Shown in pieces: positions 1-7,514 of a stretch of DNA of 7,814 bases (the stretch's first letter is position 1; every line of letters begins with the position of its first letter). The stretch comes from a virus (taxonomy: Duplodnaviria; Heunggongvirae; Uroviricota; Caudoviricetes), in the IMG/VR virus record IMGVR_UViG_2617270988_000018. One strand, given 5' to 3'. The notes under the pieces were generated by a model. It searched no databases. It was given only the letters and a program-made list of their open reading frames with translations, and was not told the origin of the DNA. Made by a program: the position numbers and the translations under genes.

Positions 1-531
1 TTATGCTGCTCTCACGATATAGTTAAATGCAATGCTTCTTGGTCTGTTCTCTGAGGCAGTTGGCACTACTCTTGAAGCATCAAAATTGACTAAATGAGGA
101 TTGTTTGGGGTATTTGGAATGATTGTGGTGTTACCTATCGTATTACGAAGTGCTGATTGACTTACAAAAACACCACTCGCTGTATTAAAGCTAATAGCCG
201 CATTAGCTTCGGTTTGTCCATTACCAAATGTGCCGGTTATATTACGAATAGCATCCCCCTGAGCAGACAGAATTTCGCGCCCCGCGTCAATACCGCGCCC
301 GTCATCCCAGCCACGAATAAACTCACCACGTAAATCAGGCAATTTATTTGTCGGATAAGCCTTTGCCAGTTCCGGGTATTCTTCAGCAGAAAAAGCGGCA
401 CCGTTGCATTTCAGCCAGCCTGTTGGCGGAGTGGCGGAAGGCCACGGAACAGGCACGCCAACGGGTAATGCCGAACCTTCTCCCAAACCAACGTTTATGA
501 AAATGCAGAGATAACGGGCAACTGGCATCAT
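1..531 (-). CDS. Tail fibre variable C-terminal cassette (tail-collar-like domain), alternative and currently unfused orientation of an invertible fibre segment. The functional part is about 1..477; the first ~18 codons (478..531) read through the crossover site and are probably fortuitous.
   Basis: Translation contains the motif PTGWLKCNGAAFSAEEYPELAKAY, typical of phage tail-fibre C-terminal (tail collar) domains. The ORF ends with TAA at the window edge (1..3 on the minus strand). A 26-bp inversion crossover site sits at codons ~10-18, as in the Mu S/S' and P1 fibre genes. No convincing SD precedes the ATG at 531. Confidence 0.7.
   Translation of the reverse strand: MMPVARYLCIFINVGLGEGSALPVGVPVPWPSATPPTGWLKCNGAAFSAEEYPELAKAYPTNKLPDLRGEFIRGWDDGRGIDAGREILSAQGDAIRNITGTFGNGQTEANAAISFNTASGVFVSQSALRNTIGNTTIIPNTPNNPHLVNFDASRVVPTASENRPRSIAFNYIVRAA
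478..503. other. gix/hix/cix-like inversion crossover site for a serine DNA invertase (TTCTCCCAAACC-AA-CGTTTATGAAAA)
   Basis: 26-bp imperfect dyad with 12-bp half-sites around a central AA dinucleotide, matching the architecture TTnTCnnAAACC-nn-GGTTTnnGAnAA of Hin/Gin/Cin/Pin sites. It lies ~55 bp upstream of the invertase start and inside the fibre reading frame. Confidence 0.7.
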
Positions 532-2414: not shown

Positions 2415-2933
2415 ATGGCAATGCCGCGCAAACTCAAGTTAATGAACGTCTTTCTGAACGGCTACAGCTATCAGGGCGTTGCAAAGTCCGTCACGCTGCC
2501 AAAACTGACCCGTAAGCTCGAAAACTATCGCGGTGCGGGGATGAACGGCAGCGCACCGGTAGACCTCGGCCTTGATGACGATGCGCTGTCAATGGAGTGG
2601 TCGCTCGGGGGCTTCCCGGATTCGGTTATCTGGGAGCTTTACGCCGCAACCGGTGTGGATGCCGTGCCGATTCGTTTTGCAGGCTCTTACCAGCGTGACG
2701 ATACCGGCGAAACGGTGGCCGTCGAAGTGGTCATGCGTGGACGTCAGAAAGAAATCGACACCGGCGAGGGTAAACAGGGAGAAGACACCGAGCCGAAAAT
2801 CTCCGTGGTCTGCACCTATTTCCGGCTGACGATGGACGGTAAGGAGCTGGTCGAAATCGACACCATCAACATGATTGAGAAGGTGAACGGCGTCGACCGG
2901 CTGGAGCAACACCGCCGAAATATCGGCCTGTGA
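2415..2933 (+). CDS. FII: Tail tube protein (P2 gpFII)
   Basis: 172-aa ORF, same length and position as P2 FII. AAGGAG SD at 2401..2406 overlaps the FI stop codon. Confidence 0.95.
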   Translation: MAMPRKLKLMNVFLNGYSYQGVAKSVTLPKLTRKLENYRGAGMNGSAPVDLGLDDDALSMEWSLGGFPDSVIWELYAATGVDAVPIRFAGSYQRDDTGETVAVEVVMRGRQKEIDTGEGKQGEDTEPKISVVCTYFRLTMDGKELVEIDTINMIEKVNGVDRLEQHRRNIGL

Positions 2934-2989
2934 TTTTCATCCGGTCAGCCTGGCTGACCGGTTAACCCTGATTCAGAAGTGAGAAAACC

Positions 2990-3265
2990 ATGAACAAAGA
3001 AAATGTGATTACCCTGGACAATCCGGTCAAGCGTGGTGAGCAGGTTATCGAACAGGTCACGCTGATGAAGCCCAATGCCGGGACGCTGCGCGGTGTCAGT
3101 CTGGCTGCGGTCGCAAACTCCGAAGTCGATGCACTGATTAAGGTGCTGCCGCGCATGACGGCACCGATGCTGACCGAGCAGGAAGTCGCCGCGCTGGAAC
3201 TGCCTGACCTTGTGGCGCTGGCCGGTAAGGTGGTCGGTTTTTTGTCGCCGAACTCGGTGCAGTAA
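2990..3265 (+). CDS. E: Tail assembly chaperone (P2 gpE), zero-frame product
   Basis: 91-aa ORF between tube and tape-measure genes, matching P2 E in length and position. Contains the slippery heptamer T_TTT_TTG near its 3' end. Confidence 0.9.
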   Translation: MNKENVITLDNPVKRGEQVIEQVTLMKPNAGTLRGVSLAAVANSEVDALIKVLPRMTAPMLTEQEVAALELPDLVALAGKVVGFLSPNSVQ

Positions 3266-3417
3266 CGTTCCCGAAAAATCTCTCGGTCGATGACCTGATG
3301 GCGGATGTGGCAGTGATATTTCACTGGCCGCCATCAGAACTGTATCCCATGAGCCTGACCGAACTCATCACATGGCGCGAAAAGGCGCTCCGGCGAAGCG
3401 GAAACACGAATGAGTAA
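2990..3417 (+). CDS. E+E': Tail assembly chaperone fusion E+E', made by a programmed -1 ribosomal frameshift at TTTTTTG (3238..3244); predicted 142 aa
   Basis: After a -1 slip, the frame from 3244 is open for 57 codons (VAELGAVTFPKNLSVDDLMADVAVIFHWPPSELYPMSLTELITWREKALRRSGNTNE) and stops at TAA 3415..3417, overlapping the T start at 3410. The 142-aa total matches P2 E+E' as recalled, and the arrangement is analogous to lambda G/GT. Confidence 0.75.
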
Positions 3418-5857
3418 CAATGTAAAATTACAGGTATTGCTCAGGGCTGTTGACCAGGCATCCCGCCCGTTTAAATCCATCCGCACAGCGAGCAAGTCGC
3501 TGTCGGGGGATATCCGGGAAACACAAAAATCACTGCGCGAGCTGAACGGTCACGCATCCCGTATTGAGGGATTTCGCAAGACCAGTGCACAGCTCGCCGT
3601 GACTGGTCATGCACTTGAAAAGGCACGGCAGGAGGCCGAAGCCCTTGCCACACAGTTTAAAAACACCGAACGTCCGACACGTGCTCAGGCGAAAGTGCTG
3701 GAATCCGCGAAGCGTGCGGCGGAGGACTTACAGGCGAAATATAACTGCCTGACGGATTCCGTTAAACGCCAGCAGCGGGAACTGGCCGTTGTGGGAATTA
3801 ATACCCGCAATCTTGCACATGATGAGCAGGGACTGAAAAACCGTATCAGTGAAACCACCGCACAGCTTAACCGTCAGCGTGATGCGCTGGCGCGTGTCAG
3901 TGCGCAACAGGCAAAACTTAACGCAGTCAAACAGCGTTATCAGGCCGGAAAGGAACTGGCCGGAAATATGGCCTCAGTAGGCGCTGCCGGTGTGGGGATT
4001 GCGGCGGCGGGAACGATGGCCGGAGTTAAATTGCTGATGCCCGGTTATGAATTTGCGCAGAAAAACTCAGAATTGCAGGCCGTGCTCGGAGTGGCAAAAG
4101 ACTCCGCCGAAATGACCGCACTCCGCAAGCAGGCGCGCCAGCTCGGCGACAATACCGCAGCCTCGGCAGATGATGCAGCCGGTGCACAGATTATCATTGC
4201 GAAAGCCGGTGGGGATGTTGATGCCATTCAGGCGGCAACGCCGGTCACGCTGAATATGGCGCTGGCGAACCGCCGCACGATGGAAGAAAACGCCGCCCTG
4301 CTGATGGGGATGAAATCCGCCTTTCAGCTTTCAAACGATAAGGTCGCTCATATCGGGGATGTTCTCTCCATGACGATGAACAAAACCGCCGCCGATTTTG
4401 ACGGCATGAGCGATGCGCTGACCTATGCCGCACCTGTGGCAAAAAATGCCGGTGTCAGCATTGAAGAAACCGCCGCAATGGTCGGGGCGCTGCATGATGC
4501 AAAAATCACAGGCTCAATGGCGGGGACGGGAAGCCGTGCCGTGTTAAGCCGCCTGCAGGCACCGACGGGAAAAGCATGGGATGCACTCAAAGAGCTTGGC
4601 GTGAAAACCTCAGACAGCAAGGGAAACACCCGGCCAATATTTACCATTCTGAAAGAAATGCAGGCCAGTTTTGAGAAAAACCGGCTCGGTACTGCCCAGC
4701 AGGCTGAATACATGAAAACCATTTTCGGGGAGGAGGCCAGCTCAGCCGCCGCTGTGCTGATGACTGCCGCCTCAACCGGAAAGCTGGACAAACTGACCGC
4801 TGCGTTTAAAGCCTCAGACGGGAAGACCGCAGAGCTGGTAAATATCATGCAGGACAACCTCGGCGGTGACTTTAAGGAGTTTCAGTCCGCTTATGAGGCG
4901 GTGGGGACTGACCTGTTTGACCAGCAGGAAGGCGCACTGCGTAATCTCACGCAGACGGCCACAAAGTATGTGTTAAAACTCGACGGCTGGATCCAGAAAA
5001 ACAAATCACTGGCGTCAACCATCGGCATCATTGTCGGTGGTGCACTGGCACTGATTGGTGTCATCGGTGCCATTGGCCTCGTCGCCTGGCCGGTTATCAC
5101 CGGCATCAATGCCATCATCGCGGCAGCAGGCGCAATGGGGGCAATCTTCACGACGGTTGGCAGTGCTGTTATAACCGCCATCGGGGCGATTAGCTGGCCG
5201 GTTGTGGCCGTGGTGGCCGCCATTGTCGCCGGGGCGTTGCTTATCCGTAAATACTGGGAGCCTGTCAGCGCATTCTTTGGCGGTGTGGTGGAAGGGCTGA
5301 AAGCGGCATTTGCGCCGGTGGGGGAACTGTTCACGCCACTTAAACCGGTGTTTGACTGGCTGGGTGAAAAGTTACAGGCCGCGTGGCAGTGGTTTAAAAA
5401 CCTGATTGCCCCGGTCAAAGCCACCCAGGACACCCTGAACCGTTGCCGTGACACGGGCGTCATGTTCGGGCAGGCACTGGCTGACGCGCTGATGCTGCCG
5501 CTTAATGCGTTCAACAAACTGCGCAGTGGTATTGACTGGGTACTGGAAAAACTCGGTGTTATCAACAAAGAGTCAGACACACTTGACCAGACCGCCGCCA
5601 GAACTCAAGCCGCCACGTATGGCAGCGGTGGTTATATTCCGGCGACCAGCTCTTATGCAGGTTATCAGGCTTATCAGCCGGTCACGGCACCGGCTGGCCG
5701 CTCTTATGTAGACCAGAGTAAAAACGAATATCACATCAGCCTGACGGGTGGTACTGCGCCGGGGACACAGCTCGACCGCCAGTTACAGGATGCGCTCGAA
5801 AAATACGAGCGGGATAAACGTGCGCGCGCCCGTGCCAGCATGATGCATGACGGTTAA
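3410..5857 (+). CDS. T: Tail tape measure protein (P2 gpT)
   Basis: 815-aa ORF, same length as P2 T. Coiled-coil-like N-terminal region, then an Ala/Gly-rich segment and a long hydrophobic stretch (~5021..5245), typical of tape measure proteins. Confidence 0.95.
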   Translation: MSNNVKLQVLLRAVDQASRPFKSIRTASKSLSGDIRETQKSLRELNGHASRIEGFRKTSAQLAVTGHALEKARQEAEALATQFKNTERPTRAQAKVLESAKRAAEDLQAKYNCLTDSVKRQQRELAVVGINTRNLAHDEQGLKNRISETTAQLNRQRDALARVSAQQAKLNAVKQRYQAGKELAGNMASVGAAGVGIAAAGTMAGVKLLMPGYEFAQKNSELQAVLGVAKDSAEMTALRKQARQLGDNTAASADDAAGAQIIIAKAGGDVDAIQAATPVTLNMALANRRTMEENAALLMGMKSAFQLSNDKVAHIGDVLSMTMNKTAADFDGMSDALTYAAPVAKNAGVSIEETAAMVGALHDAKITGSMAGTGSRAVLSRLQAPTGKAWDALKELGVKTSDSKGNTRPIFTILKEMQASFEKNRLGTAQQAEYMKTIFGEEASSAAAVLMTAASTGKLDKLTAAFKASDGKTAELVNIMQDNLGGDFKEFQSAYEAVGTDLFDQQEGALRNLTQTATKYVLKLDGWIQKNKSLASTIGIIVGGALALIGVIGAIGLVAWPVITGINAIIAAAGAMGAIFTTVGSAVITAIGAISWPVVAVVAAIVAGALLIRKYWEPVSAFFGGVVEGLKAAFAPVGELFTPLKPVFDWLGEKLQAAWQWFKNLIAPVKATQDTLNRCRDTGVMFGQALADALMLPLNAFNKLRSGIDWVLEKLGVINKESDTLDQTAARTQAATYGSGGYIPATSSYAGYQAYQPVTAPAGRSYVDQSKNEYHISLTGGTAPGTQLDRQLQDALEKYERDKRARARASMMHDG

Positions 5858-5871
5858 GGAGGTGACGAAAA

Positions 5872-6351
5872 ATGATGCTCGCGTTAGGTATGTTTGTTTT
5901 TATGCGCCAGACGCTGCCACACCAGACCATGCAGCGTGAATCAGATTATCGCTGGCCGTCAAATTCCCGTATCGGTAAACGGGACGCTTTTCAGTTTCTC
6001 GGTGTGGGTGAGGAAAACATCACGCTTGCCGGTGTGCTTTATCCCGAACTGACCGGCGGCAAGCTGACGATGACCACGCTCAGGCTGATGGCAGAGGAGG
6101 GGCGGGCGTGGCCGTTGCTGGATGGCACCGGCATGATTTACGGCATGTATGTCATCAGCAAGGTGAGTGAAACAGGGAGTATTTTCTTTGCAGACGGCAC
6201 ACCCCGGAAAATTGATTTTACGCTGTCGCTCACCCGCGTTGATGAATCACTGGCCGCGCTTTATGGCGATATCGGTAAACAGGCGGAATCGCTCATCGGT
6301 AAGGCCGGTAGTCTGGCGACTAGATTCACGGGGATGACGGGGGCGGAATAA
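5872..6351 (+). CDS. U: Tail protein U (P2 gpU)
   Basis: 159-aa ORF, same length and position as P2 U. Strong AGGAGG SD at 5857..5862. Its stop overlaps the D start (TAATG). Confidence 0.9.
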   Translation: MMLALGMFVFMRQTLPHQTMQRESDYRWPSNSRIGKRDAFQFLGVGEENITLAGVLYPELTGGKLTMTTLRLMAEEGRAWPLLDGTGMIYGMYVISKVSETGSIFFADGTPRKIDFTLSLTRVDESLAALYGDIGKQAESLIGKAGSLATRFTGMTGAE

Positions 6352-7514
6352 TGCTGGATGCGCTGACATTTGATGCAGGCAGTACGCTGACGCCGGATTA
6401 CATGCTGATGCTCGACAGCAGGGATATTACCGGCAATATCAGCGACCGTCTGATGAGCATGACTCTGACGGATAACCGGGGCTTTGAGGCTGACCAGCTT
6501 GATATTGAACTGAACGATGCCGACGGGCAGGTCGGGCTGCCGATTCGTGGCGCTGTCCTGACGGTGTATATCGGCTGGAAAGGTTTTGCCCTGGTATGCA
6601 AAGGGAAATTTACCGTTGATGAGGTTGAACACCGGGGCGCGCCGGATGTGGTCACCATCCGCGCCCGGAGTGCAGATTTTCGCGGGACGCTCGATTCCCG
6701 CCGTGAAGGCTCCTGGCATGACACCACGCTCGGTGCGATTGTTGAGGCAATAGCCTCCCGTAACAGGCTGGAAGCCAGTGTCGCGCCGTCACTGGCCGGA
6801 ATTAAAATCCCGCACATCGACCAGTCGCAGGAGTCTGATGCGAAATTCCTGACCCGTCTTGCAGAACGCAACGGCGGTGAGGTGTCGGTAAAAATGGGAA
6901 AACTGCTGTTTCTCAAAGCGGGGCAGGGGGTGACTGCCAGCGGTAAAAAAATCCCGCAGATTACCATCACCCGCAGCGACGGTGACCGTCATCATTTTGC
7001 GATTGCTGACCGTGGAGCCTATACCGGCGTAACGGCAAAGTGGTTACACACCAAAGACCCGAAACCACAAAAGCAGAAGGTAAAACTGAAACGCAAAAAG
7101 AAAGAAAAACACCTGCGCGCACTGGAGCACCCGAAAGCAAAACCGGTCACGCAGAAGAAAGCGCCAAAAGTACCGGAAGCGCGCGAAGGTGAATACATGG
7201 CAGGTGAGGCTGACAACGTTTTTGCCCTGACCACGGTATATGCCACGAAAGCGCAGGCCATGCGCGCCGCTCAGGCGAAGTGGGATAAGCTGCAACGGGG
7301 CGTTGCGGAGTTCTCTATCAGTCTGGCTACTGGTCGGGCAGATATTTACACGGAAACGCCGGTCAAAGTATCAGGCTTTAAGCGCGTCATAGACGAGCAG
7401 GACTGGACAATCACTAAGGTGACACATTTTCTGAATAATAGCGGCTTCACGACGTCCCTGGAGCTTGAGGTCAGGCTTTCTGATGTGGAGTACGAAACAG
7501 AAGATGATGAGTGA
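6351..7514 (+). CDS. D: Tail/baseplate hub-like protein D (P2 gpD, late control gene D family)
   Basis: 387-aa ORF, same length and position as P2 D. Start overlaps the U stop (TAATG at 6349..6353), indicating translational coupling. Contains an internal Lys-rich low-complexity linker. Confidence 0.93.
   Translation: MLDALTFDAGSTLTPDYMLMLDSRDITGNISDRLMSMTLTDNRGFEADQLDIELNDADGQVGLPIRGAVLTVYIGWKGFALVCKGKFTVDEVEHRGAPDVVTIRARSADFRGTLDSRREGSWHDTTLGAIVEAIASRNRLEASVAPSLAGIKIPHIDQSQESDAKFLTRLAERNGGEVSVKMGKLLFLKAGQGVTASGKKIPQITITRSDGDRHHFAIADRGAYTGVTAKWLHTKDPKPQKQKVKLKRKKKEKHLRALEHPKAKPVTQKKAPKVPEAREGEYMAGEADNVFALTTVYATKAQAMRAAQAKWDKLQRGVAEFSISLATGRADIYTETPVKVSGFKRVIDEQDWTITKVTHFLNNSGFTTSLELEVRLSDVEYETEDDE

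Follow-up and report, generated by a model that had tools for sequence, protein, structure and literature searches.

A programmed -1 frameshift very probably produces the tail assembly chaperones gpE and gpE+E' in a P2-like tail operon

The stretch of viral DNA analysed here (7,814 nucleotides in all, hereafter the window) contains a P2-like tail operon in which a programmed -1 frameshift at positions 3238-3244 very probably yields two products, a 91-aa gpE and a 142-aa gpE+E', which would be paired tail assembly chaperones. A tail-chaperone frameshift of the P2 E/E' type had been proposed in an initial annotation of this DNA, and that reading was supported by near-identity to the annotated P2 site and by conservation of the E' peptide. 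The P2 E/E+E' frameshift, found here in a near-identical prophage copy, is already known: it was demonstrated in P2 in 2002, and tail-chaperone frameshifting of this conserved type is a textbook example of recoding.

The ORF listing and Pfam matches showed that the window contains the FI-FII-E-T-U-D contractile-tail operon, on the + strand and of the P2-like (Peduovirus) type. Its genes are the following:

1212-2402, + strand: FI, sheath (Pfam Phage_sheath_1)
2415-2933, + strand: FII, tail tube protein, the upstream boundary of the chaperone locus (Pfam Phage_tube, 4.2e-60; P2 annotation)
2990-3265, + strand: E, 91 aa, tail assembly chaperone, read in the zero frame (Pfam Phage_TAC_7)
3410-5857, + strand: T, tape measure, 815 aa (Pfam PhageMin_Tail, 2.4e-45)
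5872-6351, + strand: U (Pfam Phage_P2_GpU)
6351-7514, + strand: D (Pfam Phage_GPD)

All six genes are syntenic with phage P2 (AF063097), as judged by Pfam and collinearity, and collinearity with P2-like phages extends from about position 1120 rightward through the whole window. In megablast searches P2 had 98.3% DNA identity to positions 2900-3500, and 74 phage records, many of them Peduovirus genomes and P2 included, matched this interval with at least 95% identity. The chromosome of E. coli AMSCJX04 was 100% identical over positions 2990-3417, and this locus was found in 1582 of 5426 complete E. coli genomes. Taken together, the P2-like matches and the E. coli chromosomal copies indicate that the window belongs to a P2-like prophage or phage.

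Two overlapping ORFs, E and E', are placed between the tube gene FII and the tape measure gene T. The elements that define their relationship are:

3226-3228, + strand: TAA closing the -1 frame upstream of the slip site, leaving this frame open only from 3229
3238-3244, + strand: slippery heptamer T_TTT_TTG, which in register and sequence equals the annotated P2 frameshift site
3244-3417, + strand: E' segment in the -1 frame, 57 codons and a stop (translation, Pfam, PHROG and tblastn)
3410-3417, + strand: ATGAGTAA, the T start codon and then the E' stop, an 8-nt overlap of E' and T (read directly from the sequence)

The heptamer stands in the X_XXY_YYZ register within E (GGT 3236-38, TTT 3239-41, TTG 3242-44) and, as had been claimed, seven codons before the E stop, with six sense codons in between and the stop itself (3263-65) as the seventh codon. 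Both frames are open in a shift window of 3229-3265; the opening of the -1 frame at 3229 is three codons ahead of the heptamer, and the slip site is the first usable position. Translation agreed with the 57 open codons given for the -1 frame (sense codons 3244-3414, TAA 3415-3417), and the 144-bp gap between E and T (3266-3409) is explained, as the initial annotation had argued, by its being coding in the -1 frame. Two details of that annotation had to be corrected. The -1 frame had been described as lacking ATG, but ATG codons are present at 3298 and 3349, as well as GTG codons at 3307 and 3313; and the TAA, said to overlap the start codon of T, is in fact found 3 nt past the ATG at 3410. The gpE+E' CDS is join(2990..3244, 3244..3417), which encodes 85 + 57 = 142 aa, and residues 1-85 are common to gpE and gpE+E'.

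The window has seven forward genes, and a script identified seven X_XXY_YYZ heptamers in register within them; that at 3238-3244 had the longest -1 extension, 57 codons. The other six, at 864, 1110, 4441, 4567, 4621 and 6896, were rejected as chance occurrences, with -1 extensions of 0-33 codons and positions far from the ORF ends. One of them, G_GGA_AAA at 4567-4573, is in register within T, 428 codons ahead of the T stop; its -1 frame is open for 33 codons, and it is probably due to chance.

The predicted fusion was constructed by reading E through TTG and then using its G a second time, as the start of GTC. Its comparison with P2 gpE+E', which had been proposed as a check, gave 141 identical residues out of 142 (AAD03292.1 / UniProt O64312), the sole substitution being N29 in the window and S29 in P2; the 57-aa E' peptide was 100% identical to P2 E' by tblastn. 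When the same construct is made from P2, it reproduces AAD03292.1 / NP_046780.1 / UniProt O64312, 'Tail assembly protein E'', without a difference, and public databases list the window's exact 91-aa E under the name 'phage tail assembly protein'. AF063097 has an annotated 'site of -1 translational frameshift', which maps within one base of the end of the window heptamer. The same record presents gpE+E' as a joined CDS that shares its amino terminus with gpE, arises by -1 frameshift and is an essential tail protein, a status it also gives to gpE. P2 and the window agree in gene order (FI, FII, E, E', T, U, D), in the codon at which the heptamer is found, in the 57-codon extension and in the 8-nt overlap with T, whereas the E stop is TGA in P2 and TAA in the window. 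Judged by this sequence correspondence, the locus is the orthologue of P2 E/E+E'.

For P2, Christie and colleagues reportedly established in 2002 that E' is essential, by complementation, and obtained about 10% -1 frameshifting with fusion polypeptides. The production of a 91-aa E and a 142-aa E+E' in P2 via a -1 shift at TTTTTTG was described by Lynch et al. 2010 (PMC3091744), who cite Christie et al. 2002 and Xu et al. 2004 for the shift. According to the literature and database annotation, the frameshift occurs in P2 itself and E' is essential there.

Both parts of the fusion contain recognizable domains. E matched Pfam Phage_TAC_7 (PF10109) over residues 7-85 (2.4e-12, 47.1 bits, cut-off 25) and PHROG 103 'tail protein' (3.8e-43), and E' matched Pfam Phage_P2_GpE (PF06528) over residues 104-139 (1.2e-21, 76.3 bits, cut-off 23). 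PHROG 1756 aligned to residues 82-142 of the fusion, spanning the junction. NCBIfam gave no match for the 142-aa fusion, and no relative was found in the PDB at E<=1.

Besides matching this Pfam family, the -1 peptide proved to be conserved in related phages, one of two points on which the initial annotation had made its reading depend: tblastn with E' alone retrieved 404 phage records, down to about 45% identity, from phages of Escherichia, Yersinia, Salmonella, Klebsiella, Erwinia, Burkholderia, Ralstonia, Pseudomonas, Shewanella, Vibrio and Mannheimia. A comparison set of 13 loci was composed of the window and twelve phage loci, P2 among them. All 13 have an in-register slippery heptamer close to where the E homologue ends, with no stop in the -1 frame from that point through the conserved E' core (MADIAxIFHWPP...ELxxWRxKAxxRSG). 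Eleven of them carry TTTTTTG; Vibrio phage MAR has TTTTTTC instead, and a Mannheimia phage has GGGAAAG, its record itself noting G_GGA_AAG as a slippery sequence. The E' stop overlapped the next gene's annotated start, or was within a few bases of it, in 11/13 loci. Substitutions were counted in the five gaplessly alignable enterobacterial copies, using only the part of E' beyond the E overlap, and variable columns at codon positions 1, 2 and 3 of the -1 frame numbered 18, 11 and 26, respectively (3 > 1 > 2).

These observations leave no room for the view that heptamer and open -1 frame came about by chance and that the 144-bp gap is a non-coding spacer. The 18 codons from 3244 to the first ATG would be stop-free by chance with a probability of about 40%, estimated as (61/64)^18, but chance is excluded by the conservation of the -1 peptide at the protein level across the 404 phage records. 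The match of E' to a curated Pfam family, the substitution bias, which follows the codon positions of the -1 frame, and the presence of 2-5 stops in the other two frames of the E' stretch also speak against coincidence.

Within the family, the slip site turns over while E' is kept, as seen in Mannheimia phage 587AP1 (G_GGA_AAG) and Vibrio phage MAR (T_TTT_TTC), where the variant sites are at positions 465-471 and 474-480 of the fetched loci. In these two phages the E' stop is not overlapped by the next gene.

E' could alternatively be a separate small gene of 39 aa, starting at ATG 3298 and expressed with no frameshift, which we consider very unlikely. This ATG does exist in the -1 frame, the Phage_P2_GpE domain (residues 104-139) is wholly downstream of it, a separate small CDS is annotated at the E' position in several phage records, and about 1000 contigs as well as RefSeq E. 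coli genomes list the exact 39-aa sequence as a protein of its own, the 'GpE family phage tail protein'. However, ATG 3298 has no Shine-Dalgarno sequence, its pairing energy of -2.9 kcal/mol being the weakest among the starts scored (those in the -1 frame and those of the genes) except for ATG 3349, whose anti-Shine-Dalgarno pairing was +0.2 kcal/mol. The corresponding Met is replaced in 4 of the 13 loci, by Val in 500465-1, Ile in the Mannheimia phage, Trp in Vibrio MAR and Ala in the Ralstonia phage, and in all 13 the -1 frame is open back to the in-register heptamer although the spacer differs in length and sequence. An independent start is also at odds with the PHROG 1756 alignment across the junction, and with the P2 record and the literature, which treat E' as an extension of E.

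Even less probable is transcriptional slippage, in which RNA polymerase would add a U in the T6 run and thereby generate an mRNA subpopulation with E and E' in frame. Productive transcriptional slippage usually needs runs of about 8-9 bases or more, and the T run is only six bases long. The slip site is nonetheless a homopolymer run, its T7 version encodes exactly the in-frame 142-aa fusion and occurs in three draft assemblies, and transcriptional slippage has been named as one possible reason for the under-representation of UUUUUUU in E. coli genes (Sharma et al. 2014, PMC4066793). Against this, the trailing G and the frame register are kept in 11/13 loci, features that matter for tRNA re-pairing and not for polymerase slippage, and the G_GGA_AAG of the Mannheimia relative is not a homopolymer.

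The three draft assemblies are from E. coli and carry T7 for T6 at the equivalent of the slip site (about positions 849-855), with E-E' called as an ordinary 142-aa gene (...GFFVAELG.., RJK13013.1; the P2-type equivalent is QTN08932.1). The T7 is likely a homopolymer sequencing error, since two of the three assemblies have truncated tube, sheath or tape measure neighbours.

Under programmed ribosomal frameshifting, the favoured explanation, ribosomes translating E would reach T_TTT_TTG and a minority of them would slip back one base. Tandem re-pairing is the most likely route, in which tRNA-Phe in the P site exchanges one UUU for another and tRNA-Leu in the A site leaves UUG for UUU. Decoding would then resume at GUC 3244 and proceed for 57 codons in the -1 frame to the TAA at 3415-3417. 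The predicted junction is ...VVGFL-VAELG..., where Leu85 is the expected residue; a slip before UUG is decoded would instead put Phe at residue 85. The outcome would be an abundant gpE and a less abundant gpE+E'.

The position of the pair between tube and tape measure genes, and the membership of E in a tail-assembly-chaperone family, make lambda gpG/gpGT the best functional model. Long-tailed phages typically have such chaperone pairs. In lambda, the part shared by both chaperones attaches to the tape measure, while tube subunits are brought in by the extension; neither chaperone is found in the virion, and how often ribosomes shift determines the ratio of the two (Atkins et al. 2016, PMC5009743). 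By analogy, the shared E part would coat the tape measure protein T, and the E' domain would recruit the tube protein FII, so that the tube would polymerise around T. We infer from lambda both the partners of E and E' in P2-type phages and the absence of the two chaperones from the virion. The P2 gpT is annotated in GenBank AF063097 as 'putative tail length determinator'.

The gpG/gpGT pair of lambda, studied by Levin, Hendrix and Casjens (1993) and by Xu, Hendrix and Duda (2004, 2013, 2014), occupies the same place, flanked by the genes for the major tail (tube) protein and the tape measure, and lambda's own G_GGA_AAG is carried by the Mannheimia relative of E. The two systems differ in the heptamer, which is G_GGA_AAG in lambda and T_TTT_TTG here, and in the tail, which is non-contractile in lambda and contractile, with a sheath, in P2. 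Christie and colleagues are said to have stated in 2002 that lambda has no detectable sequence similarity to P2 proteins, and to have given a ratio of about 10:1 for P2. The ratio of short to extended product in lambda is about 30:1 (PMC5009743).

Other counterparts are the Peduoviridae E/E' pairs of phage 186 (orf51/orf52, gene H), the Burkholderia phages KS5, KS14 and KL3, and phiCTX (orf24/24.5), in which TTTTTTG is in register near the end of the E homologue. They share the E' core (MADIAxIFHWPP...L.EL..WR.KA..RSG), and their E' ends at or over the tape measure start. They differ in the length of the E homologues (91-116 aa), in the linker between slip site and core, which varies in length and sequence, and in E' itself, with identities of 45-77%. 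The signals of E. coli dnaX and of IS911/IS3 have in common with the window a tandem-slippage heptamer of the form X_XXY_YYZ, decoded by bacterial ribosomes. These signals consist of A_AAA_AAG with a Shine-Dalgarno sequence 6-17 nt upstream and/or a downstream hairpin or pseudoknot, whereas here a Shine-Dalgarno-like element is only 4 nt upstream and no stimulator was found 5-9 nt after the heptamer.

A downstream stimulatory RNA structure, which the initial annotation had advised looking for, was not detected: the folding of four windows around 3245-3330 did not surpass that of dinucleotide shuffles (z-scores of -1.0, -1.4, +0.6 and -0.4), and RNAalifold on the 13 homologues gave 0 conserved pairs downstream of the heptamer. 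No downstream structure was reported in P2 or the Burkholderia phages either (Lynch et al. 2010, PMC3091744). Since no downstream structure was detectable, the frameshift efficiency cannot be predicted from the sequence. U_UUU_UUG is outside the motifs ranked most efficient in E. coli, and heterogeneous ZZN codons such as UUG shift less well (Sharma et al. 2014, PMC4066793); this agrees with a shift rate deliberately kept low.

A 5-bp hairpin at 3246-3259 (CGCCG AACU CGGUG) begins 2 nt past the heptamer. It was rejected as a stimulator, being too close for the classical type, not significant against shuffles and absent from the consensus folding; by eye it was also only partly kept in enterobacterial relatives, and it is within a doubly coding stretch.

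Upstream of the heptamer, one further element was recorded:

3227-3233, + strand: AAGGTGG, Shine-Dalgarno-like, ending 4 nt before the heptamer (scored by pairing to the 16S 3' end)

Its duplex with the 16S 3' end had an energy of -8.9 kcal/mol, better than all other 16-nt windows scanned upstream in E. Comparable Shine-Dalgarno-like elements precede most TTTTTTG sites and none precedes the TTTTTTC of the Vibrio phage or the GGGAAAG of the Mannheimia phage. The 4-nt spacing is outside the range of 6-17 nt upstream of the heptamer in which stimulatory Shine-Dalgarno sequences were searched (Sharma et al. 2014, PMC4066793), and because the element coincides with conserved (K/E)-V codons, its signal is confounded. 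Any role of AAGGTGG in the frameshift is uncertain.

The arrangement of ATGAGTAA raises the possibility, unlikely in our judgement, that the frameshift does more than produce E+E' and is also coupled to reinitiation at T, with AAGGTGG involved in a related tuning of the shift rate. Frameshifted ribosomes would terminate 3 nt past the T ATG, and part of T translation may come about by termination-reinitiation; if this were true, the amount of tape measure protein would be tied to the amount of E+E'. In the same way, AAGGTGG may tune the shift rate at its unusually short spacing, acting on a heptamer of only moderate slipperiness in E. coli. The Shine-Dalgarno sequence of T is weak (-3.5 kcal/mol, among the weakest in the operon). 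As a sign of coupling this was discarded as uninformative, the Shine-Dalgarno sequence of E being weak too and that of T ranging from -1.5 to -7.0 kcal/mol across lineages.

An ORF track alone hides an essential tail protein at this locus, and annotations should give the joined CDS, join(2990..3244,3244..3417), in place of the 'non-coding gap' and of the stand-alone 39-aa ORF. At the sampled copies, RefSeq/PGAP gives E and a 39-aa ORF from ATG 3298 (3298-3417) in place of the E+E' fusion.

To the left of the tail operon, the window contains an ORF with a tail-collar domain (1-531, minus strand) and a DNA invertase with Resolvase/HTH_7 domains (553-1152); P2 has fun(Z) left of the operon instead. 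The invertase and the tail-collar ORF suggest an invertible tail-fibre host-range switch, like those of Mu (Gin) or P1 (Cin). This left end is common to only some P2-like phages, namely pro483, the P2 of O157:H43 T22, MET_P1_103_31 and S164.
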